Shown: piece after piece, positions 26,902 to 44,196 of the stretch
Layout of the letters: each line of letters starts with the position of its first letter
Position numbering within the stretch: the stretch's first letter is position 1
NCBI GenBank assembly: GCA_050951805.1
Contig: JBMNJT010000004.1
Coordinates: forward strand, 32,001-96,000
Direction: 5' to 3'
DNA length: 64,000 bases
From: Bacillota bacterium
GTDB taxonomy: Bacteria > Bacillota > DTU025
Position numbers and translations under genes: made by a program
The notes under the pieces: model-generated
The model's database searches: none
What the model saw: the letters and a program-made list of their open reading frames with translations, nothing else
Told to the model about the DNA's origin: nothing

Positions 26902-28057
26902 CGGGCGTCACCTCCCCGGCTACGATGGAGAATACCGCGGCACCGCGCGGCATCAAATCCCTACACCCTGGCTCCACGCTGGTAACAAGAACTTGATTGT
27001 CCCCTACTATCTCTCCCAAAAGATTAGTCCTGCGAGTCTCATCCAATTCTGAGAGAACATCGTCTAGAAGAAGCACTGGCATATCCCCAGTATGCGCTCT
27101 TATGAAATTTGCCTCGGCAAGCTTGACCGCAAGCACTGTCGACCTTTGTTGCCCTTGGGACCCATAGGTAGCTACGTCTGCCCCATCAAGCTGGAAACTG
27201 ATGTCATCGCGGTGTGGACCGACCATGGTTACCCCTCTGATCAGCTCCACCTTGCGCAATTGTCGCAGGCGCGCGCGATATCTTTCGGCAATCCAGTCAA
27301 CCGTCGCCTCGCTTGTTGAACCTTGCTCGTCCGCAGAAAGAGGTACCGAAGGCAAGTATCTCACGGAAAGCGCCCCAGGAACTCCCGTAATCCTGTAGTG
27401 GGCCTCACGCCCCAGCTCGTCAAGGCTGGCTACAACTTGCATTCGACGGGCTGTTATCTTCGATCCGGTCTCGATCAACTGCTCGTCCCATGATTCGAGA
27501 AGCCTGCTCGCGGCGGCCGAATCGCTCCGCCAATTTCTTTCCCTAGCCTGCTTCAGCAGAGCATTTCTCTGCGTAACGATCTTGGAATAAAGGTTGATCA
27601 ATTGCCTATAAGCGGGGCTCACCTGGGATATCTCCAGATCCAGAAACTTCCGCCTCACAGAAGGGCTCCCTTTGACCAGCGCAAGGTCGTCGGGGGTAAA
27701 AAGCACCACGTTGAGAAAAGATGACAGCTCCGCAGCGCGAATCCTTTCCGTGCCGTTGAGCCTCACGAGCTTTCTTCCATCTGTGGAATAACTGACTTCC
27801 AACGTCACAGGGGCGGGCTTGCGCTGGACGTCTACGGCGACCCTATAATACGAACTCCCCTTTTGGACAAGTTCGGAATCGGATGAGGCGCGATATGAGC
27901 GGCCCGCAGAGGCAACGTACACAGCCTCTAGAAGGTTAGTCTTTCCTTGTGCATTGTGCCCCAAAAACAGGTTGAGCCCAGGGTCGAAAGTCACCGACTC
28001 TTTGCTGTAGTTTCGGAAGCCACTCAACTGGATATTCCTCACCCACACGCTTGTCAC
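26801..28057 (-). CDS. recF: DNA replication/repair protein RecF
   Basis: FRNY, GHNAQGKTNLLEA, GPHRDD, GSQGQQR, LLLDDVLSELD. Confidence 0.97.
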   Translation of the reverse strand: MTSVWVRNIQLSGFRNYSKESVTFDPGLNLFLGHNAQGKTNLLEAVYVASAGRSYRASSDSELVQKGSSYYRVAVDVQRKPAPVTLEVSYSTDGRKLVRLNGTERIRAAELSSFLNVVLFTPDDLALVKGSPSVRRKFLDLEISQVSPAYRQLINLYSKIVTQRNALLKQARERNWRSDSAAASRLLESWDEQLIETGSKITARRMQVVASLDELGREAHYRITGVPGALSVRYLPSVPLSADEQGSTSEATVDWIAERYRARLRQLRKVELIRGVTMVGPHRDDISFQLDGADVATYGSQGQQRSTVLAVKLAEANFIRAHTGDMPVLLLDDVLSELDETRRTNLLGEIVGDNQVLVTSVEPGCRDLMPRGAAVFSIVAGEVTPDDASHRGCSGKEHGQDGIHRPDPGDIRHASVER

Positions 28058-28311
28058 ACATCCTCCTTGCCAGACCCGGAGCTGCCGCCAGATACGATGG
28101 TAACCACTACATCTGCGAACTCGAGGACGTCGCCGTCCCTAAGTTTCCTTCCGCGTCTGAACTCAGCGGCTCCATTCACCTTCGCCCAGCCCGAATGGAT
28201 GGCCATCTTGGCCTCTCCGCCCGATCCGACCAGCGCAGCAAGTTTGAGCGCCTGGTCGAGCTCTATATATTCAGTCTCTATTTCCAAAGTCATGTTTTTC
28301 ATGCGTCCCAT
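28054..28311 (-). CDS. yaaA: S4-domain RNA-binding protein YaaA
   Basis: YIELDQALK, SGGEAK, VNG..E.RRGRKL..GD. Confidence 0.92.
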   Translation of the reverse strand: MGRMKNMTLEIETEYIELDQALKLAALVGSGGEAKMAIHSGWAKVNGAAEFRRGRKLRDGDVLEFADVVVTIVSGGSSGSGKEDV

Positions 28312-28315
28312 CTCA

Positions 28316-29452
28316 TCACACCGGCGCCGTTACAGGCATCAGAAGATAAGTGTACGCAGGATCCGTCTCGTCCGTAACCTCTATTGGATGCCTGTAGCTG
28401 GTGTAGCCTAAGCACACCTCTTCCCCGTCGAGCACCCTGAGCACGTCCCGCAGGTATCTTGCGCGCATGGCCACGGTGACCTCTGCGTGGCCGATCATGG
28501 ACACAGGTATGTCTTCTTTGCCCTCTCCGACCTCGGGTGTGGCAGCGGTGATTGTCAAAAAGCCCGAGGCCATTCCCTCATCACCGGTATACGACATCCT
28601 GATGGCGCTCAATTCGTCCTTGCACATCAGAGATACCCTGTCTACGCTGTCCAAAAGCTGCAGGCGATCGCAGATTATCTTTGCCGGTATATTCTGCGGG
28701 AAAACCTGCTTGTAATTGGGGAATTGTCCTTCCAACAGTCGTGTCACGTAAGTCGTGGGCCCTATCCGAAACATTGCATGGTTTTTCTCGATGGCTATCG
28801 AGACTTCCCTCTCCCCGGTGTCATTGAGGTTTCTCTCCACTTCGAGAAGGGCCTTGGCCGGGATTATCACGTCAATTGGCTCTTCAAGATCGAACGATGC
28901 CTGCGCTTTCCTGTATGCAAGCCTGAATGAATCGGTGGCCACCATGGTCAGCGAGTCCTTTTCGAACAGCATGTAGATGCCCTTAAAAAAAGCCCTGGCA
29001 TCGTCGACTGCCGCCGCAGGAATGGTGCGCCTGATCATGGTCTTGAGCTCGCTTTCTGGCATAGACCAGCTATTTGCTTCCGAAATCTCCGGCAATGCGG
29101 GAAACTCCGCAGCCGGCATGGTTTTCACGGTAAAGTCCGCTCTTCCGGCGGATATGCTCACAGATTGGCTCTCCTCCCGATACTCAAGAATGACTTCTGA
29201 CTGCGGAAGCTTTCTCGAGATATCGGAGAAATACTTGGCGGGGATTACTGTCGACCCCTCTGTTCCAACAGTAACCGGAACAAATGTCTCGATGCCCAGT
29301 TCGTCCAGGTCGTATGCTACCAACCTCAGGCCTTGTGTGCAAGTTTCCACAAGCACTCCTGAAAGCGCTTGGATGGTAGCCTTAGGAGAGACCGCCTTGT
29401 ACACGGTCTGAACTCCGCTGACCAAAGCTGCCTTGGAGCATGATACCTTCAC
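28316..29452 (-). CDS. dnaN: DNA polymerase III beta clamp
   Basis: VATDSFRLA, LLEGQFPNY, YLLMPV; GTG start after GGGGAGGT. Confidence 0.96.
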   Translation of the reverse strand: MKVSCSKAALVSGVQTVYKAVSPKATIQALSGVLVETCTQGLRLVAYDLDELGIETFVPVTVGTEGSTVIPAKYFSDISRKLPQSEVILEYREESQSVSISAGRADFTVKTMPAAEFPALPEISEANSWSMPESELKTMIRRTIPAAAVDDARAFFKGIYMLFEKDSLTMVATDSFRLAYRKAQASFDLEEPIDVIIPAKALLEVERNLNDTGEREVSIAIEKNHAMFRIGPTTYVTRLLEGQFPNYKQVFPQNIPAKIICDRLQLLDSVDRVSLMCKDELSAIRMSYTGDEGMASGFLTITAATPEVGEGKEDIPVSMIGHAEVTVAMRARYLRDVLRVLDGEEVCLGYTSYRHPIEVTDETDPAYTYLLMPVTAPV

Positions 29453-29489
29453 CTTGCTATACCTCCCCACTGACCTGATTTCCAGGCAC

Positions 29490-29720
29490 ATGCATATATA
29501 AGTACTACTATGAGTACATATGTACATTTACCGTAGTAGTAGTATACGTGCCTGTGGATATCTGGATAAGTGTCGAATTTCATGGGTTATGCTGCCCGTC
29601 TGTTCCCTGTGTCACTGTAGACAGATTGTTGATTACTTGTGGAGCAGATGGAGAGTTATCATCAGTTATCCACAGGGGTTTTTTCTTTCCACACGCTTTC
29701 CACAGCCTTTTCACATGTTG
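29490..29720. promoter_or_regulatory. oriC unwinding region: DnaA boxes, DnaA-trios and AT-rich tract
   Basis: Minus strand TTATCCAGA/ATATCCACA-GGC-ACGTA-TACTACTACTAC (29533-29569); further boxes TTATCCACA, TTTCCACA and TTTTCACA up to ~29715. Confidence 0.88.
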
Positions 29721-29740
29721 TTAACTACATAATCAACAGC

Positions 29741-31225
29741 TCAACTGCTCTTCAATCTGGCGACTATTTCCTTGATGTTCGCGTTCATGGTTGAGTCCTT
29801 TTTCAGCTCGTTTTGAATCTTGTCATAGGCGTGAATCACAGTTGTATGATCCCGTCCACCGAATTCCTCGCCTATCTTCGGCAGCGAAAGCTCTGTGAGC
29901 TCACGGCAAAGATACATGGCGATCTGTCGTGGCAAGGCTACAGTGCGGACCCTCGTCTTTGACACCATTTCCGATACTTCCAGGTGGTAGTAGTCTGCCA
30001 CTGTTCGCTGTATTAGCTCCACCGATATCTGCTTTGGCCGAGAGGATGGTATCATGTCCTGGATTACCTCTGCGGCAAGCTGTGTAGTTATCTCGCGATT
30101 AGTCAGGGCGGCACAGGCCGTTACTCGGATGAGCGCTCCCTCCAGCTCACGTATGTTCGAATGTATCTGGCCCGCTATATACACCAGCACGTCGTTGGGA
30201 ACGTCAAGACCCTCCGACACAGCTTTCTTCTTCAGAATTGCGATCCTTGTCTCAAGGTCGGGAGTGCCTATATCCGTAATCAGGCCCCACTCAAATCGCG
30301 ATCGCAGCCTTGCTTCGAGCGTGGCAATTTCTTTCGGGGGTCGATCAGACGAGAGCACTATCTGCTTTCCCGACTCGTAGAGAGTGTTGAAGGTATGGAA
30401 GAACTCTTCCTGAGTGCGTTCTTTTCCGGCGAGGAACTGAATATCATCTATCATCAGGACATCCACGTTGCGATATCGCTCGCGAAACTGAATAGTCGTT
30501 TCAAAGCGAATCGAGTTTATTAGCTCATTTGTGAATTGCTCGCAAGGAACGTATACTACCTTGGCATAAGGGTTGATCTCCAACACATGATGGCCTATGG
30601 CCTGCATCAAGTGGGTCTTTCCCAATCCCACTCCGCCGTATATGAAGAGCGGGTTGTAGGCCTTCCCAGGCGCTTCGGAAACGGCAAGCGCAGCCGCGTG
30701 GGCGAACCTGTTGGAGTTGCCCACTACAAAAGACTCGAAAGTATACTTCGGATTTAGCGCCGGTGTAGAGAAGTCATCGAAGGCTCTCGCTTCAGCCTGC
30801 GTTTGGGCGTATGTTCCAGAAGTCGCTGCCGCTTCGTCGACTCCCATGCCTGATGCGGCATTTGCGTCCAACGCGTTAGCGGGCGACGGCTCTCGGGTCG
30901 CAGGGTTTGCGCGATTGCCCATCTCGTAAGAATCTTCGCTTACGGCTCCATCTCCGTTTTCTCCATCAGCCGAACTTTCCCTAGCAATAAACCTCACCGT
31001 TATTTTCCGGCCCACCATGGATGACATGGTTTCTGACAGCAATGCTGCGTATCGCATTTCCAGCCAGTCACGGGCAAAGTCGTGCGGAACCGGCACTTCT
31101 ACGATGTCGTCGGAGACGACAACGGGGACACTGGTCTTGAGCCATGCGTCAAAGCTTGGCCTCGACAGCTCGCTTTCGAGGACCTGAAGAACGTCCATCC
31201 AAATTGCATTTATCTCTTGGGACAC
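29741..31225 (-). CDS. dnaA: Chromosomal replication initiator DnaA
   Basis: YTFESFVVGNSN, YNPLFIYGGVGLGKTHL, IDDIQF, GGRDHTTVIHA; GTG start after GAGGGG. Confidence 0.98.
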   Translation of the reverse strand: MSQEINAIWMDVLQVLESELSRPSFDAWLKTSVPVVVSDDIVEVPVPHDFARDWLEMRYAALLSETMSSMVGRKITVRFIARESSADGENGDGAVSEDSYEMGNRANPATREPSPANALDANAASGMGVDEAAATSGTYAQTQAEARAFDDFSTPALNPKYTFESFVVGNSNRFAHAAALAVSEAPGKAYNPLFIYGGVGLGKTHLMQAIGHHVLEINPYAKVVYVPCEQFTNELINSIRFETTIQFRERYRNVDVLMIDDIQFLAGKERTQEEFFHTFNTLYESGKQIVLSSDRPPKEIATLEARLRSRFEWGLITDIGTPDLETRIAILKKKAVSEGLDVPNDVLVYIAGQIHSNIRELEGALIRVTACAALTNREITTQLAAEVIQDMIPSSRPKQISVELIQRTVADYYHLEVSEMVSKTRVRTVALPRQIAMYLCRELTELSLPKIGEEFGGRDHTTVIHAYDKIQNELKKDSTMNANIKEIVARLKSS

Positions 31226-31248
31226 TTTGTCACCCCTCATTTGGACCA

Positions 31249-32481
31249 TCACCTAAAGACATAGCTGAGGAAGTCAACACCCCGCCTCGTAAGCTTTCGC
31301 TTGCCCCCTTCGAGGCTGACTACGAGTCCCAATTCCTCTAGGGTCACTAGATCGCGATATGCCGTGCTAAGGCTTATGTCAAGCTCTTTTGTGACAACTG
31401 AAGGCCCTATCTCCCCCATCTCTGCAATAAGCAAGAACACCTTCTTCTGGCGTGAGGAGAGCAAGGCGCCGAGAGCCTCATCTGACATATCAGAGGATTG
31501 AGATGTGGATGGGGGTTCCTCATCTCGCCTTTTCTTCGACTGATCTGCCGCCGAATCCTGCTTCTCGACGGATAAAGTGGCTCTGCCTTCGTCAGCTATG
31601 TTTTCCATATCAATGGAGTCGGATTCGTTGTAGACGGCCGAAGATGTCTGTGAAATCTCGGTTCTCGGATCCCGTTGTGGCCTGGCATCCCCTGGCCCCT
31701 CGGCGAAGATGTGTCCATCTCCGTCTTGAGGATGGCCAATAAAGATGCCCTGAGTAGGCGGGTGATAGGCGCCGGAAATGTCCTGGCGCGAGCTCCACGC
31801 CGCTTCTGTAAACCCTTGTGCAATCTGGGCTGGTTGCATATGGGCGGGATCATGCCGTACAGGCTGGGATGAACCAGCAGTTTGTTGCAAAACTCTGTCA
31901 GGTTTCGGCGACACGCCGCCGCGAGCTGTACCGGGAGAGGAACATAGCGTGACCACGAGACCTGAACCCAGATTGTCCTCGACAGTGAGGAAACCTCCTA
32001 AGGACTCTAAAGATTCAATCATTATAGGGAAACCGGAGCCCACTCCCTTTATCAACTTCCTGTCGTCGGCCGTTGCTGAGGTAAAACCGGGCATCATAGC
32101 CTGGCTCTTAGCGGGTATGCCAGGTCCATGATCTGATATGCGCACAACATTGCCATCGGGCATGATCGTAATTACTGCATCTTTGAATCCGGCGTGTATC
32201 AGGTTTTCGATGGCTTCCCTCAGAACAACAAAGGGCATGGATCCCCCTTTTTCTTTGCAGAAGGCGTATACCCTGGATGATGCTTCATCCACAAAGGACG
32301 CAAAGCTATCGGATGAGAGATCAATTGTGCGAGGGAGAATCGACATTGAATCATAAGTTGCTATGCGCAATGTGTACGCCGGAGCGGACTCAGGCGCTAT
32401 TGCCGATACTTCGGCGACCGAGTCCTCTGTCTGGCTTTTCTCTCCATTCATCCTGCCAAATAGGAACTTGAACAAAGCCAC
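31249..32481 (-). CDS. Uncharacterised GHKL (HATPase_c) ATPase plus C-terminal winged-HTH protein
   Basis: N-box REAIENLIHA, G1 DHGPGI, G2 GFTS...GVGSG; wHTH LSSRQKKV...ELDISLSTAYRDLVTLEELGLV; AGGAGG SD 8 nt before GTG 32481 (ATG 32487 is an alternative). Confidence 0.85.
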   Translation of the reverse strand: MALFKFLFGRMNGEKSQTEDSVAEVSAIAPESAPAYTLRIATYDSMSILPRTIDLSSDSFASFVDEASSRVYAFCKEKGGSMPFVVLREAIENLIHAGFKDAVITIMPDGNVVRISDHGPGIPAKSQAMMPGFTSATADDRKLIKGVGSGFPIMIESLESLGGFLTVEDNLGSGLVVTLCSSPGTARGGVSPKPDRVLQQTAGSSQPVRHDPAHMQPAQIAQGFTEAAWSSRQDISGAYHPPTQGIFIGHPQDGDGHIFAEGPGDARPQRDPRTEISQTSSAVYNESDSIDMENIADEGRATLSVEKQDSAADQSKKRRDEEPPSTSQSSDMSDEALGALLSSRQKKVFLLIAEMGEIGPSVVTKELDISLSTAYRDLVTLEELGLVVSLEGGKRKLTRRGVDFLSYVFR

Positions 32482-32519
32482 TTGCATAGCCTCCTGGCTT
32501 CAACACTCTCCGCTCCACT

Positions 32520-32955
32520 ATTTCATCCACAGGTTATCCACACGAAAATGTGGATAACTTTAGCGCCAGCTAAAATGGTCCGGAATTGATCGACAATTAT
32601 TGACTATTGCTCGAATGCTGCTAGTCGGGTTTACAAGATTCTCGAAATATCACGTTTTCACCATGAAGTTATCCACAACGTTTTCCACAGCTGTTGAAAA
32701 GTCGTCGGAAAGCGGAGTCCGCATATTGTTTATAACATATCATCCACAAGTATTCCACAGAGACCTGTGGATATCCTACCGCCAGCAGATTCGGGGCGAA
32801 CATATGTTTTAGCTGGCTTTTCGCCAGTCAAAGGCGGCTTTCACAATTATCCACAGATGGTTTTGGGAAAGTTTTTGCCCGAATATCGGCGGTTGTGGGA
32901 AATCCACGAACTTCACACAGGTTATCCACAGGGATATCCACAGACTGTGCATAAA
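32520..32955. promoter_or_regulatory. Upstream oriC DnaA-box cluster
   Basis: Perfect TTATCCACA or its reverse at 32534, 32549, 32669, 32847 and 32922, plus near-matches at 32523, 32681, 32740, 32766, 32934 and 32946. Confidence 0.92.
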
Positions 32956-34256
32956 AGGGCGCATAACTGGCGATAATCATTGGTGTATGAATTCGCGAGC
33001 GAAAAGTCGGTATGTTTGTACACACTATCATAACAGAGCGAGAAGAGATCAAATCGAGCAACACAGCTTTTCACTACTACAACGCCTCAATGCCCGGCAA
33101 TATATGGCGTGAGACAGCGGACCCTTTGGCGCGGGTTTGCAGCGATAATGGGATGAAACTGATCATCGCGGGTGATCCACAAAGAGTTACCGGCGATCGA
33201 GGCTTGATAAGTCGGGATGCATTCTTGCAAGATCCACGAGCATCTATTGCTAAGAGTGAGCGCTTTGGTTGCCAATTGAGCCGAAATGCTTCTTGCGAGT
33301 TGTCCACAGCATGTGAATTGTCAGTTTTTGGAATGGACAGAAGCAGATGCGACTTATCAGAATGTGACAAACTGGAGAACTCAAAGAGTGAGGCTGCAAT
33401 AAATAGGTAGGATCGTGGCTAGTGGCCGACTTTGTCTCCGAGATTGAGAGAAGATACAATGAGCTGCGTGATGGAAGGTGCGCAGCACTAAGATGGGCTG
33501 AGTGTTGAAAAGCGCAGATGAGCAGAGATCACGGGGAAAGGGATATGAGGCAAGACAGGCTTTGGGGTAATCGTCAAACAGTGCCCGCCTGGGTTGATGC
33601 CCTGGAGTGTGCAATAATCCTCCTCGAGGAGACAAGCTTGGGGAGGTTTATCTATGTCAAAGAGTAAAGGTGAATAGATGTGGAAGGCAAGGATTGCCGA
33701 ATTCAAGGCTAGATGGATGAGCGGCAGGAATCGGTGCGGGTGTGCATAAGAACTGCAAAAGGATCTTCATGGTTCTGAAAGTGTTTGAGGGACTCCTGTG
33801 AGCAGCGCTCAAAAGGCACTTGGGGGTTTGGGGCGGCTGAGGCCCGAAGAAAAGCAAATGCAGATACGGAGATGGCACAACAACTGAAAATGGATCACAT
33901 TGAAAGGAATGCGAAACTCGCAAAGATCTGTTTCGGTTGGCGAGCCATCTTGGATTTGAGGGACGGCTGACAATCCGTTTCCCCCATGGGAAAAGCCCGT
34001 TTTGCAGCACGAAAAACAGGGCAACCGGCCCAAAGTGTAAAATGTTGCAAATAGTCCAAACAACGTGGATAGAACCACAAAAGCAGTTGTTTCGCTGGAA
34101 TGAAGCTGTTGAGAAATTGGGCGATTTGGGACAATTGAAGCTTGTTATAGACTACCTGCCTGACGAAGAGTTGATGCAAGCGTTAGAAAAAGTACGGGGC
34201 AATGGAAGGCATCATCTTTTAATATAAGACTACCGAGGGCCTTTGTCGGGGCTAAT

Positions 34257-35456
34257 TATAGGTAAAAAACCTCAAAGTGCAATCATGATGCCTTGAAGTA
34301 CGACCTGGCGTCCACGCGCCTTCTCACTTTGCTTGGTGTGTTGTAGGCGTATTCGAAAAACTTGCGTATCCTCTGTGGCAGCTCCTTGTCAACTGCATAC
34401 GCACTCTCTCGGGCGCAGTAGTCCCAGGGCCAAGCCCACATGTTCTCCTCTGGGTTCAGCTCTGGAGAATACGGGGGCAAGAAAATGAAATGGAGCCTAC
34501 CCTGGTATTTGCGCTCATACTCGGACGCTATGGACCTGTGGGGCGGGTAGTTGTCCATTATCATCCATACCTCTTTATCGGGGTTCCTGCGCATCAGCTT
34601 ATCGATAAACCGGCCTACATGCGGCGCCTTTATGCCTTCCCGGGATGAGTATATGGAGTAGTAGGGCTTGAAGGTCTTGAGTATCTCCGTAGCGCCTATG
34701 ACGTTGACTCCCTTGTGGTCCCCATTTGCCTCTGCATAGAGGGGAAGGCCTTTGGGAGCCCATCCGTAGAAATTGCTGGACTCCAGTCTGATTCCGGTCT
34801 CATCCAGGGCGAACAGGCAAACGTCATCTCTTTGGGAAAGCTCATCCACTAGTGCAGCAGCCCCTTTTCGAAGGATTCCTGGGCCTCCTTGTTCGCCCTC
34901 GAGGGGCGCTTGGTGCTTCTCTTGTGGGAATAGCCAAGCTTGTGCAGTATCTGCCGAATCCACTCATAGGAGTACTTCTTTCCGTAAGTATCAAAGATGT
35001 ACCTTTGAAGCACCCGGGTATCCCACCGGTTCTTGCTGTATCCATGATCCCTTGGGCTACGGTTCCTAACCGCATCGTCTACATCCTGAAGCATCTCCTC
35101 GGTGAATGAACTCTGGCTGCCGCCTCTGTGATCTATCGTGGCCTCCATGCCTTGCTTGTTCCACCGATTCACGTATCTCCAGACGGAGACACGCGAACAT
35201 CCAAGCGTCTGGGCTATGGTTTCCGCAGGGATGCCCTGAAGCGTCATGACCACTGCAGTCAGCGTTTGACGCGTATATGGTTTCTCGGCATGCGCCGCAA
35301 GCTTCGCAATCTCGTCGATTCCGAGTCCGTGCGTATTCGTAACTTTCATCCTTGGCATTGGCATGTGCAGTCTCTCCCTTCAGCTGTTAGCCATTATACC
35401 AGCTAACGTGGCCTATGGGAGCTGGAAACTGTTCACTGCCGGGTTGCTTAGCTATA
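34257..35456 (-). mobile_element. IS630-family insertion sequence (~1.2 kb)
   Basis: TA at both ends; imperfect TIRs TATAGGTAAAAAACCTCAAAGTG vs TATAGCTAAGCAACCCGGCAGTG (16/23 match); HTH and DDE ORFs. Confidence 0.88.
34283..35364 (-). CDS. IS630 transposase (ORFA 34849-35364 HTH; ORFB DDE, joined by a predicted -1 frameshift)
   Basis: LDETG, MDNYPPH and PPYSPELNPEE triad; slippery A_AAG_GGG at 34861-34867. Confidence 0.88.
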
Positions 35457-35850
35457 GAAAAGGAGCTATGCCAGGTTTGCGGCCTCGACATTACGCTGGG
35501 CGTGGAGGAAGCCCCCGCGTCGTCGGCATACACGAGATTCTTGTGCAACCCGATGAAGCATCAAGAAGGTTGATAGATTTGGGCAGGACAAAAACCAAAC
35601 AGGGGGATAGATTGCGTAGCCCTGTACAGGCTGTATAAAAGCAGCCTTTGACAAATTGAACAATGAGATGGGAGTGCGGTTACGTGAAGGTGCCCCTCTT
35701 CCCCCAGGGGGAGCCAAAAACCGCCTTCTGACACCTATCTCGGCAAATGATGCTCCTTCATTGCCAGGGAGGAAGCTGCTCTTGCTAAACTGTCTAACTC
35801 GCCTGCGCGGGAAATCCGCTACAACCCAAATCACGCGTCCTTGCGATTCC

Positions 35851-35879
35851 TTGACACCAATATGGGCCTAGCATATAAT
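35851..35879 (+). promoter_or_regulatory. Consensus SigA promoter for rpmH
   Basis: TTGACA-N17-TATAAT. Confidence 0.9.
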
Positions 35880-35924
35880 TTACGCGGTATGCTGCCGGTG
35901 AGCTTGCAGGGAGGATAAGTTGAG

Positions 35925-36059
35925 ATGAAAAGGACATATCAGCCTAAAGTTAGGCGTCGAAACCGAGTCCATGGATATAGGAAGCGCATGAGCACGCCAG
36001 CGGGCCGCAACGTGATTAGGCGCCGCAGGGCGAAGGGGCGCAAGCGACTTACGGTGTAG
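35925..36059 (+). CDS. rpmH: 50S ribosomal protein L34 (not in the ORF track)
   Basis: [44 protein letters not shown]; GGGAGG SD. Confidence 0.98.
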
Positions 36060-36081
36060 GCGCAGGGCGTCGCTGGTTTCT

Positions 36082-36107
36082 GGCCGTCGTCGGACGGCTT
36101 TTCCTTT
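36082..36107 (+). terminator. Terminator-like hairpin after rpmH
   Basis: GGCCGTC-GTCG-GACGGCT followed by TTTCCTTT. Confidence 0.55.
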
Positions 36108-36170
36108 AGTGGACACTCCCTATTAAATGCAGGGTGTTCTGTCTTCATTGGGCTGTTAGGAGGCCCGCCA

Positions 36171-36548
36171 ATGCCAACAGTGAGTTTGCGTCGAACTTCA
36201 GATTTTCAAAGAGCTTTCCGCGAAGGCAAGAGCGCCGCAGGACAGTATGTAGTGGTGTACGCTGTGCCTAATGGCTTGCCTGAAGTTCGCCTGGGGTACC
36301 CTGTGGGAAAGAAACTGGGCGGCGCTGTCAAGCGTAATCGTATAAAGAGGCTGTTGAGGGAAGCTGCGCGCCTCGCGCCCAACATGCCTGTCAGGGGATA
36401 TGACATGGTCTTCGTGCCGAGGCGAAAGATTGCAGATCCGAAAGTGCGCTGCCATGATGTTATTGGTGATTTGGAGAAGGTTCTTGACAGACTATTGCTC
36501 GAAACTGAGTTGGGAGAGCCGAGAAGCTGTGGCGGATCGGATGTATGA
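36171..36548 (+). CDS. rnpA: Ribonuclease P protein component
   Basis: KKLGGAVKRNRIKRLLRE (RNR motif). Confidence 0.96.
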   Translation: MPTVSLRRTSDFQRAFREGKSAAGQYVVVYAVPNGLPEVRLGYPVGKKLGGAVKRNRIKRLLREAARLAPNMPVRGYDMVFVPRRKIADPKVRCHDVIGDLEKVLDRLLLETELGEPRSCGGSDV

Positions 36549-36566
36549 GGGTTGGAGGGGCAGCAA

Positions 36567-36785
36567 ATGTGGGCAGTCCGGATCGAGCTAGGGTTGATTC
36601 GTTTTTACAGGACATGCATATCTCCGCTTAAAAAGTATCCGTGTTGTCGCTATGTTCCAACATGTTCGCAGTATGCTGAAGAAGCGGTCAAGAAGTACGG
36701 TGTTATTCGAGGCACATGGCTGGCTATGAAGAGACTGGCAAGGTGCCACCCGTTCAGCGCTGGGGGATACGATCCTGTCAAGTAG
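36567..36785 (+). CDS. yidD: Membrane protein insertion efficiency factor
   Basis: [23 protein letters not shown]. Confidence 0.95.
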
Positions 36786-36852
36786 GCGTGATGAACAAAT
36801 GGCGATAGCTAGGGCAGAAAGCCAAGCCTAAGTGCGAAAGGGGGATCCGCCA

Positions 36853-37485
36853 GTGGGCATCACTGGAGTGATGCAGAGCATTCTGCGATTCTTCGCAGAA
36901 GGAACAGGCAACCTTGCATGGGCAATCATCATAGTAACGACTTTAATAAGAGCTGCGCTCCATCCTCTGCAGGTTAAGCAGGTCAGGCTAATGGAGCAGA
37001 TGAAAGAGATTACGCCGAAAGTGCAAGAGCTCGAGAAGAAGTACAAGGGGCAGCCTGAGGAATACCAGCGTCGGGTGGCGGAATTGTACCGTGACAATAA
37101 TGTAAACCCGGCGGTGGGATGTCTCAGCATGCTTATTCCGCTCCCGTTTTTTGTAATATTCTACCGCGTTTTGCAAGACACCGCGTTCATTGGCGGAATG
37201 CCGGAGGCTGCGAAGGGATTTTTATGGATAAAAGATTTCGCCCTCCCGGACGCATGGGCCCTTCCTATTTTATCAGCTGCAACAACATGGCTTTCGAGCA
37301 GGCAAACGGCTACGGATCCGTCACAGAAGTCCATGGCGATAATCATGCCCATATTTATGGGCTGGATTGCTATGAGAATGCCGGCCGGCGCGGCGCTGTA
37401 TTGGGTCACGAACAATCTGATCAGTGTGGTCCAGCAGTGGTTGATCCAGCGTCAACTGGCGGCGGCCAAGAAGGGAGTCAGCTAG
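36853..37485 (+). CDS. yidC: YidC/Oxa1 membrane insertase (short form)
   Basis: NPAVGCL, FLWIKD..PD, ALYWVTNN; synteny. Confidence 0.92.
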   Translation: MGITGVMQSILRFFAEGTGNLAWAIIIVTTLIRAALHPLQVKQVRLMEQMKEITPKVQELEKKYKGQPEEYQRRVAELYRDNNVNPAVGCLSMLIPLPFFVIFYRVLQDTAFIGGMPEAAKGFLWIKDFALPDAWALPILSAATTWLSSRQTATDPSQKSMAIIMPIFMGWIAMRMPAGAALYWVTNNLISVVQQWLIQRQLAAAKKGVS

Positions 37486-43329: not shown

Positions 43330-44196
43330 ATGGCGACTAAGCGGGGATTGGGCAAGGGCCTCAATGCAATCATAGGAGAGGCCATGCTCAATGAGGAGTC
43401 GCACGAATTACGGGGTATAGAGATACCGCTGGATCAGTTGACCGCGAACCCCTTCCAACCAAGAGCCGAGTTTGATCCGGACAAGTTGGAGGAACTGGCT
43501 GAATCCATCAGGGCACATGGAGTTCTACAGCCTATAGTGGTAAGGCGGGCTGGCGAGAACTATCAGATCATCGCCGGAGAGAGGCGTTGGCGGGCCGCAC
43601 AGATGGCTGGGTTGCAAACTATCCCTGCGGTCGTCAAGGAACTTGACGATCCTGGAATGATACAGGTGGCGCTCATTGAGAACCTGCAAAGGGAAGACTT
43701 AAACCCGATAGAGGAGGCTTCAGCCTATCGGAAGCTGATGGACGAATTCAGTATGACACAGGAACAGCTATCCGGCACTTTGGGCAAGAGCCGATCGACA
43801 ATAGCTAACGCTGTGAGATTGCTTAATCTCCCCGACGAAATACAGGAGCATGTCTCACGTGGGCGCCTGACAGGAGGGCATGCCCGATGCCTCTTAGCCC
43901 TTGATGACGCCAAGGTGCAGCTGGAGGTAGCAAAGGAAGTCATCGATAAGGGGCTGACGGTTCGTCAAACAGAGGAACTAGTGAGAAGGCTAGTGAAAAA
44001 TGTTTCACGTGAAACAATTGAACAGGCTCCACAGGTGCCCGACCCGGATGTGGTAGCTATCATAAGGCACCTGAGCGAAAGGCTCGGGACGAAGGTGAAA
44101 ATAACCGGGTCCTCGGGCAAGGGCAAGGTAGAGATAGAGTATTATTCAGAAGACGATCTAGGAAGGATTCTCGATATCATTCTTGGCATTGCTTGA
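43330..44196 (+). CDS. spo0J: ParB/Spo0J
   Basis: GLGKGL, NPFQPR, GERRWRA, ENLQREDL, HTH. Confidence 0.96.
   Translation: MATKRGLGKGLNAIIGEAMLNEESHELRGIEIPLDQLTANPFQPRAEFDPDKLEELAESIRAHGVLQPIVVRRAGENYQIIAGERRWRAAQMAGLQTIPAVVKELDDPGMIQVALIENLQREDLNPIEEASAYRKLMDEFSMTQEQLSGTLGKSRSTIANAVRLLNLPDEIQEHVSRGRLTGGHARCLLALDDAKVQLEVAKEVIDKGLTVRQTEELVRRLVKNVSRETIEQAPQVPDPDVVAIIRHLSERLGTKVKITGSSGKGKVEIEYYSEDDLGRILDIILGIA
44001..44016. promoter_or_regulatory. parS site (within spo0J)
   Basis: Perfect palindrome TGTTTCACGTGAAACA. Confidence 0.95.

Follow-up and report, generated by a model that had tools for sequence, protein, structure and literature searches.

We identified, in what looks like a chromosomal replication origin, a gene that from its sequence and setting is a strong candidate for an unrecognised controller of chromosome replication. 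The gene (31249–32487, reverse strand) lies directly ahead of dnaA in a 64,000-nucleotide (nt) stretch of a Bacillota bacterium (GTDB lineage Bacteria; Bacillota; DTU025; GenBank assembly GCA_050951805.1, contig JBMNJT010000004.1, positions 32,001 to 96,000 of the forward strand), the whole of which is called the window below. It encodes a protein that joins a GHKL ATP-binding domain to a C-terminal winged helix-turn-helix (wHTH) through a flexible linker. On balance, we lean towards viewing this GHKL-wHTH protein as a DNA-binding regulator that depends on ATP, works at oriC or at the dnaA promoter and is made together with DnaA. The analysis established the gene, its domains, the conservation of its ATP-binding residues, its strict linkage to dnaA, its distribution and the complementarity of that distribution to YabA; binding to oriC DNA, dependence on ATP and an effect on initiation are what we infer.

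The control of DnaA is understood in a few model species, and YabA, Soj, SirA, Hda and SeqA are each limited to certain lineages. For Coriobacteriia, Thermoleophilia, many non-model Bacillota and Sysuimicrobiota, initiation control is, to our knowledge, essentially uncharted. The leads that bear on this are that the gene equals dnaN in the tightness of its linkage to dnaA and has a core conserved about as well as DnaA, that it is present in about one third of the sampled Actinomycetota and one tenth of the window's phylum, and that within the sample of that phylum it occurs only where YabA was not found over the cut-off. Furthermore, the prediction is testable by ordinary genetics and chromatin immunoprecipitation, because cultured gut bacteria carry the gene.

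Conserved linkage to dnaA

The first-pass annotation of the window, made from its letters, had predicted that homologues would be linked to dnaA, had suggested similar proteins beside dnaA in Coriobacteriia and had stated that in most Bacillota only DnaA boxes lie between rpmH and dnaA. The linkage and the Coriobacteriia homologues were borne out when we examined the neighborhoods of relatives by tblastn, with the DnaA, DnaN, RecF and RpmH of the window as queries. Each of the 119 related loci had a homologue that directly preceded dnaA in the same orientation: 11/11 close relatives, 10/10 more distant ones, 80/80 from a genome collection (the best 80 of at least 521 tblastn-confirmed hits among at least 599 matches to a pattern scan of one genome per species) and 18/18 carriers from a phylum sample. 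Removing identical copies left 104 distinct loci, the window included. The gap between the stop codon of the gene and the start of dnaA, measurable in 91 loci, had a median of 30 nt (≤50 nt in 72 loci and ≤100 nt in 87), and the two genes overlapped in 2. The neighbors identified in all loci were rpmH (where assembled and detected) and dnaA-dnaN-recF. Every carrier genome has one copy of the gene, and no copy turned up at another place in a genome. In two Adlercreutzia loci (L081 and L085), the gene and dnaA are inverted as a unit relative to dnaN-recF and rpmH; dnaN-recF lies there on the other side and strand and rpmH downstream, so the adjacency of dnaA and dnaN is lost and the pair formed by the gene and dnaA is kept. 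The Coriobacteriia examples include cultured strains such as Eggerthella sinensis DSM 16107, whose 373-aa homologue stops 42 nt before dnaA, and Adlercreutzia muris DSM 29508. By comparison, 25 non-carrier loci of the window's phylum for which the upstream sequence was available had no match to the protein beside dnaA, and in 21 of these rpmH was 170–875 nt upstream of the estimated dnaA start.

The protein is about as conserved as DnaA itself, with a mean distance of 0.53 for the conserved core and 0.49 for DnaA domains III–IV. Pairwise distances of the two were correlated (Pearson 0.69, Spearman 0.54, 4005 pairs), which fits long vertical co-inheritance under strong constraint, with the proviso that some correlation is expected for any linked genes. 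The family also appears as a discrete one, because in an exhaustive profile search of 1.84 billion representatives the number of clusters (50% identity) rose from 384 at E ≤ 1e-30 to 573 at E ≤ 1e-10, beyond which a generic GHKL tail sets in (14,243 at E ≤ 1e-3). A word-indexed search returned 383 relatives at E ≤ 0.001 among 8000 scored candidates. Their source names were only "ATP-binding protein" or "hypothetical", and the names in the protein atlas were generic and automatic. When longer fused forms (722–2060 aa) were sought with the GHKL part, none appeared at E ≤ 1e-15, a negative that is weak evidence.

Domain architecture and predicted ATP-binding fold

Intact GHKL motifs with no H-box or dimerization and histidine phosphotransfer (DHp) domain, a low-complexity linker and a C-terminal wHTH had been read from the translation, and profile searches and an AlphaFold2 model recovered the same architecture. 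The GHKL domain spans residues 38–185 (31933–32376; this and the other parts of the gene are on the reverse strand), with its N box at 32191–32220 (REAIENLIHA, residues 90–99), G1 box at 32119–32133 (DHGPGI, residues 119–124) and G2 box at 32032–32046 (GVGSG, residues 148–152). Pfam HATPase_c matched residues 88–181 (E 1.1e-9) and all 44 family members (44/44). In an alignment of 38 sequences that spans several phyla and was also the input of the AlphaFold2 model, residues E91, E94, N95, H98, A99, D119, G121, P122, G123 and G152 are invariant, G148 and G150 nearly so, and P133, G134 and F135 invariant or nearly so. A family-specific RIAxYD...PR hairpin precedes the N-box helix. Block means of the predicted local distance difference test (pLDDT) were 86–98 over most of residues 41–180, with a dip to 61–76 over residues 121–150. 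The domain thus has the N-box Asn, the DxGxG of the G1 box, the G2 glycines and, in the model, the alpha/beta sandwich that define the GHKL superfamily. Ahead of the N box, the model shows just a beta-hairpin and a single helix, and no helical hairpin stands before the GHKL domain. HisKA matched neither the window protein in Pfam nor any family member (0/44).

Both sequence and model indicate that the GHKL domain is of the kinase class (histidine-kinase catalytic and ATP-binding (CA) domains and SpoIIAB-like proteins) and not of the GyrB/MutL/MORC clamp class. The solved sequences closest to the family profile are the CA domains of the histidine kinases KinB (3d36, E 1.7e-7) and CpxA (E 8e-7), ahead of SpoIIAB (E 6.5e-3). 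The match to MutL is weak and confined to the stretch from the N box to the G1 box (NF000951, E 0.026; PDB 5x9y, E 5.6e-4, profile positions 84–144). In structure searches with the model, Foldseek retrieved HK853 and other CA domains at E ~1e-5. The top VIA-align match of the GHKL half was DIP2311 (PDB 3lmm; Z 12.4 over 149 residues), followed by SpoIIAB (1l0o_A; Z 11.7, root-mean-square deviation (rmsd) 3.0, 129 aligned positions in a chain of 141, 24% identity) and by CA domains at Z ~10. A transducer (ribosomal-S5-like) domain was not found, and in the model the disordered linker follows the GHKL domain directly. Hence, clamp-type ATP gating does not follow from the fold, because this is a kinase-class GHKL domain without a transducer domain.

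The linker (residues 189–330, 31498–31923) is disordered and of low complexity, with pLDDT mostly below 50. It is ~140 aa long in the window protein and ranges from ~15 to ~150 aa among relatives. The wHTH that follows (residues 335–411, 31255–31485) is modeled with block-mean pLDDT of 89–97 over residues 331–412 and shows the three-helix bundle and beta-hairpin wing of a winged helix. Matches of the window protein alone at residues 343–403 were sub-threshold (HTH_IclR, 21.4 bits versus a 22-bit cut-off); family-wide, Pfam matched HTH_IclR in 24/44 and TrmB in 21/44 members. By sequence, the closest relatives of the wHTH are Csa3/CasR proteins (TIGR01884, E 5.3e-6; PADLOC CasR/Csa3 models, E 1e-5 to 1e-6). 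VIA-align retrieved Rio2-N, MarR proteins, Csa3 and TubR at Z 11–12.5 and rmsd 1.3–2.6, the Csa3-type 6wxq_B scoring Z 11.5. Residues R346, Q347, T375, A376, R378, G395, K396 and R397 are invariant among the 38 sequences, and the model offers T375, A376 and R378 as a candidate recognition helix and G395, K396 and R397 as a candidate wing. From these profile and fold matches, therefore, the protein can be described as a wHTH flexibly tethered to a stand-alone kinase-class GHKL domain.

Origin DNA and candidate binding sites

The position of the gene behind a DnaA-box cluster was confirmed by counting 11 sites with at most one mismatch to TTATCCACA at 32523–32954 (unstranded). The positions of these boxes are kept across the window's GTDB family. 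Over the entire window there are 33 such matches versus 10.6 expected, a number that none of 100 shuffles (0/100) reached, and the GC skew switches sign near 32–34 kb. A second group of boxes (3 matches at 29553–29674) lies in the dnaA-dnaN intergenic region (29453–29740, unstranded), where the boxes are followed by TAC/TAG trinucleotide repeats (29531–29546 and 29500–29512) and AT-rich DNA. We take the repeats and AT-rich DNA at 29491–29570 to be reminiscent of DnaA-trio and unwinding elements; two neighboring DnaA-box-like sites stand ahead of the TAC/TAG repeats in that segment. Judged from these elements, the dnaA-dnaN spacer is probably the unwinding side of a two-part origin. The GHKL-wHTH gene and dnaA thus look to be placed between both box clusters of an apparent two-part origin, a layout that is presumably of the Bacillus type.

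Within the upstream cluster, a head-to-head pair of DnaA-box-like 9-mers, TTTTCAACAG CTGTGGAAAA, with a 2-nt spacer (32681–32700, reverse strand) lies ~210 nt upstream of the start codon of the gene and is a candidate operator. The identical 20-mer recurs in nine further loci of the window's GTDB family. It is also present in one locus from another family of the phylum and in one Actinomycetota metagenome-assembled genome (MAG); its orientation is constant throughout and its distance to the gene similar. Counting boxes with at most one mismatch from the consensus and position 3 left free, we found a 2-nt-spacer pair in 47/92 carrier loci versus 1/25 non-carrier loci; for a 3-nt spacer the counts were 18/92 and 6/25. 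Within the window's phylum, the 2-nt-spacer pair was in 18/39 carrier loci (7/14 families) versus 1/25 non-carriers. This palindromic pair would be the best candidate site for a dimeric wHTH. DnaA boxes in general were upstream of the gene in 78/92 carrier loci, and a k-mer search across carriers found no cross-phylum motif besides DnaA-box-like words.

Other words upstream of the gene were more restricted. The commonest core variant was TT[A/T]TCAACA (C to A at position 6), with ~1.5 copies per kb in carriers versus ~0.4 per kb in non-carriers, and TTNTCAACA was in 49/92 carrier versus 7/25 non-carrier loci. We dropped TT[A/T]TCAACA as a second class of sites, the association being too weak and confounded by phylogeny. 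The conserved blocks other than DnaA boxes are clade-specific. In the window's GTDB family (L002–L011), the region corresponding to 32560–32660 contains conserved TTCGA-type words (TTTCGAGAA, CATTCGAG and AATTTCGAAC) that are not DnaA boxes, as well as conserved AATTGTCGA and CTAGCTGGC. These non-box blocks may be promoter elements or sites of another factor.

Gene start, junction with dnaA and transcription

The sequence confirmed the proposed reading frame of ~410 aa, its co-orientation with dnaA behind the DnaA boxes and the 23-nt gap that separates the two genes. The frame encodes 412 aa from an ATG at 32487 to a TGA at 31251–31249, and an in-frame GTG at 32481 is an alternative start that gives 410 aa. 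Because the Shine-Dalgarno sequence AGGAGG (32490–32495, reverse strand) is 8 nt before this GTG (and 2 nt before the ATG) and the N-termini of orthologues (M-[A/V]-L-F) align with the same position, the protein most likely starts at GTG 32481, as (M)ALFKFLFGR; the entry in the protein atlas is also the form beginning at residue 3. The likely dnaA start is a GTG at 31225, preceded by AGGGGTGA (dnaA, 29741–31225, reverse strand). The gap between the stop codon and this GTG (31226–31248, reverse strand) contains the dnaA ribosome-binding site, and no terminator-like site was reported within its 23 nt. Downstream of dnaA are dnaN, an S4-domain gene and recF; dnaN probably starts at GTG 29452 rather than at the first ATG of the listed frame.

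Assembled contigs from four RNA-labelled libraries of three studies, which match the window at 95–99% identity, bridge the junction between the stop codon and the dnaA start (X3, 29976–31305; X4, 31131–31508; X5, 31196–31515; X6, 31125–31501). One X3 contig extends from within the gene across the entire box cluster to 32995. The stretch of the gene at ~31600–32000 is partly uncovered in X4–X6, and this gap is uninterpretable. The bridging contigs agree with expression of the gene and its co-transcription with dnaA, with the reservation that carry-over of DNA is possible. In Thermoleophilia-type loci, an extended −10-like element (TGCTATACT) is 10 nt before the ATG in 17 of 18 cases, with TGGTATACT in the 18th; because of this spacing, the transcript headed by the gene would be near-leaderless in this type. 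Thermoleophilia-type loci (L044–L080) also have a conserved CTCTGCTATACT 10 nt before the ATG and, upstream of it, a conserved CTGCAAAAC..GCGTTTC block with an AAAC/GTTT inverted repeat.

On the other side of the origin, the divergent rpmH (35925–36059, forward strand) is 3.4 kb away from the gene because of inserted DNA; in a genome of the same genus, rpmH is only ~1.07 kb from the start of the gene. Between the origin boxes and rpmH lies an IS630-family transposase (34283–35364, reverse strand) in two overlapping frames (HTH part, 34849–35364; DDE_3 part, 34283–34963), either expressed by programmed frameshift or broken. The ~1.3 kb between the box cluster and the transposase (33000–34280), in which the two longest open reading frames have no Pfam match, is probably part of the inserted DNA. 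Over 28000–37000, Rfam identified no RNA family and ARAGORN no tRNA.

The N-terminal peptide

The protein begins with a hydrophobic and basic peptide, (V/M)ALFKFLFGR (32452–32481, reverse strand), for which a likeness to the membrane-targeting helices of Noc and MinE had been claimed. This claim was upheld in part. The motif is conserved across the family: nearly all members show an i, i+1, i+4, i+5 pattern of two to three residues that are aromatic or aliphatic, although no helix-like N-terminal motif was evident in the Eggerthellaceae loci inspected. Helical hydrophobic moments are mostly 0.45–0.78 family-wide (mostly 0.45–0.76 in the Bacillota type), against a background 90th percentile of 0.50. 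The part that did not hold concerns charge and helicity. The net charge is +2 to +4 only in Bacillota-type proteins and −3 to +1 in Actinomycetota and Sysuimicrobiota types (MQDFFLRL, MESFLDRLLADE and [V/M]K[S/R]FF[D/E]). Moreover, the helical moment of the window peptide in its ATG form is just 0.28, and AlphaFold2 predicts no stable helix there (pLDDT 45–56). Membrane binding by the window protein is therefore plausible. Across the family, a role in docking to a protein or in turnover would account for the peptide no less well than membrane targeting.

Distribution and relation to YabA and Noc

In even samples of 401 genomes each, the gene was present in 41 genomes of the window's GTDB phylum (E ≤ 1e-20; 14 families) and in 144 of Actinomycetota, the phylum of the Eggerthella genome. 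Record labels place the carriers in Bacillota, Actinomycetota (Coriobacteriia, Thermoleophilia and others) and Candidatus Sysuimicrobiota/CSP1-3 MAGs; they include the cultured gut bacteria Eggerthella, Adlercreutzia, Slackia and Collinsella. A FastTree phylogeny of the conserved core groups the rows by taxonomy: the window's phylum (19 rows, support 98), a Sysuimicrobiota type (15, support 97), a Thermoleophilia type (15, support 100) and a Coriobacteriia type (22, support 98). Contigs labeled Betaproteobacteria, Bacteroidaceae and the archaeal Methanomethylophilaceae (L028, L051 and L094) carry the gene with dnaA-dnaN-recF, nest in the Bacillota or Coriobacteriia clades and are probably mis-binned. 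Two apparent absences are unproven: in the one genome of the same order without a match (G012), dnaA is cut at the end of contig 225, and another genome (G010) is 84% complete.

The anticorrelation with yabA that the first-pass annotation had proposed to look for was found, among genomes that are related to one another. In the sample of the window's phylum, YabA scored over the cut-off in 0/41 carriers versus 182/360 non-carriers. Three carriers (G048, G052 and G137) show YabA matches at E 2e-4 to 6e-4; the carriers are read as 0/41 because a match at E 2.8e-4 corresponded to 22.4 bits, below the cut-off of 30 bits. Among 41 closer relatives, YabA matched in 9 genomes (E ≤ 0.001; 8 of them over the cut-off), none of which had the GHKL-wHTH gene. 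Based on these counts, we treat the complementarity to YabA as a lead that falls short of proving equivalence. For Noc, the best ParB-family match in the window's own genome scored 274 bits versus a 315-bit cut-off. The sole strong ParB-family gene of the genome lies near the origin at 43420–44100 (forward strand) and, because its 274 bits fall under the Noc cut-off, it probably encodes Spo0J/ParB rather than Noc.

Interpretation and alternative explanations

In the model that we propose, the GHKL-wHTH gene would be the first cistron of the dnaA operon and encode a one-component regulator. Its stand-alone kinase-class GHKL domain would bind ATP, and the flexible linker would connect this domain to a Csa3/MarR-like wHTH that binds in or next to the upstream DnaA-box cluster, with the head-to-head box pair as its foremost candidate site. 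The GHKL domain could then tune, through its nucleotide state, transcription of the dnaA operon, assembly of DnaA at the origin, or both. As the promoter sits behind the DnaA boxes, synthesis of the protein would keep pace with that of DnaA, which would complete a feedback loop. The N-terminal hydrophobic peptide may dock the protein to a partner, which could be a protein or, for the basic Bacillota form, the membrane. Several points weigh against this model. Position beside dnaA is no proof of shared function, for rpmH, which has nothing to do with replication, is just as conserved there. The box pair could equally be explained by two DnaA molecules; it is not universal and was compared with non-carriers of one phylum. 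The wHTH has diverged in Eggerthellaceae, and the RNA contigs, which could include DNA carry-over, are no proof of one continuous transcript. Phylogeny confounds the YabA anticorrelation, the carriers belonging to 14 families and 178/360 non-carriers being without YabA over the cut-off as well. As a whole, the support stops short of DNA binding, ATP turnover or a replication phenotype. A predicted complex of DnaA and the GHKL-wHTH protein, run without controls, gave ipSAE values of 0.19 and 0.15 against a mark of 0.32 and is evidence neither way.

Three other explanations can be weighed against the same observations. The protein could be an ordinary transcription factor or sensor with distant targets and no part in replication, whose place beside dnaA is a frozen accident of a rarely rearranged region. 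The rpmH-dnaA-dnaN-recF neighborhood is indeed conserved as a whole, genes without a role in replication included, and the wHTH resembles generic MarR, IclR, TrmB and Csa3 regulators. We nevertheless consider this unlikely given the adjacency, co-orientation and short gaps in every locus examined across three phyla, the joint inversion of the gene and dnaA in Adlercreutzia, a single-copy gene that was not found elsewhere in a genome, and a sequence conservation about equal to that of DnaA. A similarly low probability attaches to a SpoIIAB-like kinase or anti-factor, whose GHKL domain would bind, and perhaps phosphorylate, DnaA, DnaN or another initiation factor; the wHTH would merely localize such a protein on DNA or be sequestered by the GHKL domain in one nucleotide state. 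The size of the stand-alone GHKL domain, its superposition on 1l0o_A (Z 11.7) and the spIIAB match (E 2.9e-4) speak for this possibility, as do its best sequence relatives, which are kinase CA domains, a distribution complementary to that of a DnaA- and DnaN-binding protein (YabA) and the conserved N-terminal peptide as a possible docking motif. Yet the locus has no STAS- or sigma-type neighbor, the SpoIIAB score is 20.8 versus 135 bits, and no conserved acceptor residue can be assigned.

Quite improbable, in our estimate, is a Noc-like tether whose N-terminal helix inserts in the membrane when the protein is bound to ATP and DNA, thereby anchoring oriC or occluding division over the origin. 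Conservation of the peptide, which in the Bacillota type is hydrophobic and basic with moments mostly of 0.45–0.76, would suit a tether, and the window's own genome has no Noc over the cut-off (274 versus 315 bits). Peptides of the Actinomycetota and Sysuimicrobiota types, however, are unlike known membrane-targeting helices in their charge (−3 to +1); the window peptide combines a moment of 0.28 (ATG form) with no AlphaFold2 helix (pLDDT 45–56), and the kinase-class GHKL domain has no known clamp behavior. The tether and the kinase or anti-factor are refinements of the proposed ATP-dependent regulator and not strict alternatives to it. Carried further, the regulator could be an ancient, vertically inherited and unrecognised component of initiation in monoderms: an ATP-switched protein, encoded within oriC, that recognises the palindromic pair of DnaA boxes and determines how DnaA is loaded or dnaA expressed, and whose peptide couples the origin to the membrane or to a partner in the replisome or cell cycle. 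We regard this fuller version as possible, though doubtful. If true, the GHKL-wHTH protein would play the part that YabA or Hda plays elsewhere, and the fold would gain a new use through the action of a kinase-class GHKL domain at a replication origin.

Comparison with known systems

Like the GHKL-wHTH protein, SpoIIAB and RsbW lack a DHp domain and have a free-standing GHKL domain of ~145 aa; that of the GHKL-wHTH protein can be superposed as a whole on 1l0o_A. The N box of the GHKL-wHTH protein has an invariant His four residues after the Mg-binding Asn, a feature that we take to be typical of the SpoIIAB group. Unlike SpoIIAB and RsbW, the protein has an additional N-terminal peptide, a long linker and a wHTH, and it misses the family cut-off (TIGR01925, NCBIfam spIIAB, 20.8 versus 135 bits, E 2.9e-4; HATPase_c_2, E 0.19). 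No gene for a sigma factor or STAS partner was found in the loci examined, and no search for one was made elsewhere in the genome. The CA domain of sensor histidine kinases is the best sequence match and shares the intact N, G1 and G2 boxes. In contrast to these kinases, the GHKL-wHTH protein lacks a HisKA/DHp domain as well as sensor and membrane domains, and no response regulator is encoded next to it.

Among regulators of replication and division, YabA is a negative regulator of DnaA in Bacillus and relatives. Its distribution in the window's phylum is complementary to that of the GHKL-wHTH protein, with no sequence or fold similarity between the two; YabA itself has no nucleotide-binding or wHTH domain. 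The two proteins may fill a similar regulatory niche, although the anticorrelation may also reflect clade structure. Noc is a ParB-family nucleoid-occlusion protein with an N-terminal membrane helix. The likeness proposed earlier lies in the combination of an N-terminal amphipathic peptide, a nucleotide-binding module and a DNA-binding HTH. The nucleotide-binding fold of the GHKL-wHTH protein is, however, a different one, its peptide is neutral to acidic outside the Bacillota type, and neither Pfam nor NCBIfam gave a ParB-family match. Csa3/CasR proteins also join a ligand domain to a C-terminal wHTH, and it is to the Csa3 type that the wHTH is nearest in sequence, but Csa3 senses via a CARF domain where the GHKL-wHTH protein has a GHKL domain. 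PADLOC gave no match to anti-phage defence systems beyond the wHTH on the tail of Csa3/CasR models. Compared with DIP2311 (3lmm), the protein has no AlbA_2 or HATPase_c_4 match in Pfam. None of the Csa3/CasR and DIP2311 proteins is linked to dnaA, unlike the GHKL-wHTH protein.

CtrA, MtrA and Spo0A are kinase-controlled DNA-binding proteins that act at oriC. Here the likeness is conceptual: a DNA-binding module under a kinase-type nucleotide switch, with sites among DnaA boxes. The GHKL-wHTH protein differs from them in having no receiver domain and in carrying the kinase-like and DNA-binding modules in one polypeptide that is encoded within the origin region. A full-text literature search, which covered articles without their supplements, returned nothing on this family or on a GHKL/HATPase_c protein at dnaA or oriC. 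The GHKL-wHTH protein would represent a variant within the known class of one-component, nucleotide-switched DNA-binding regulators, in a novel and remarkably fixed dnaA context.

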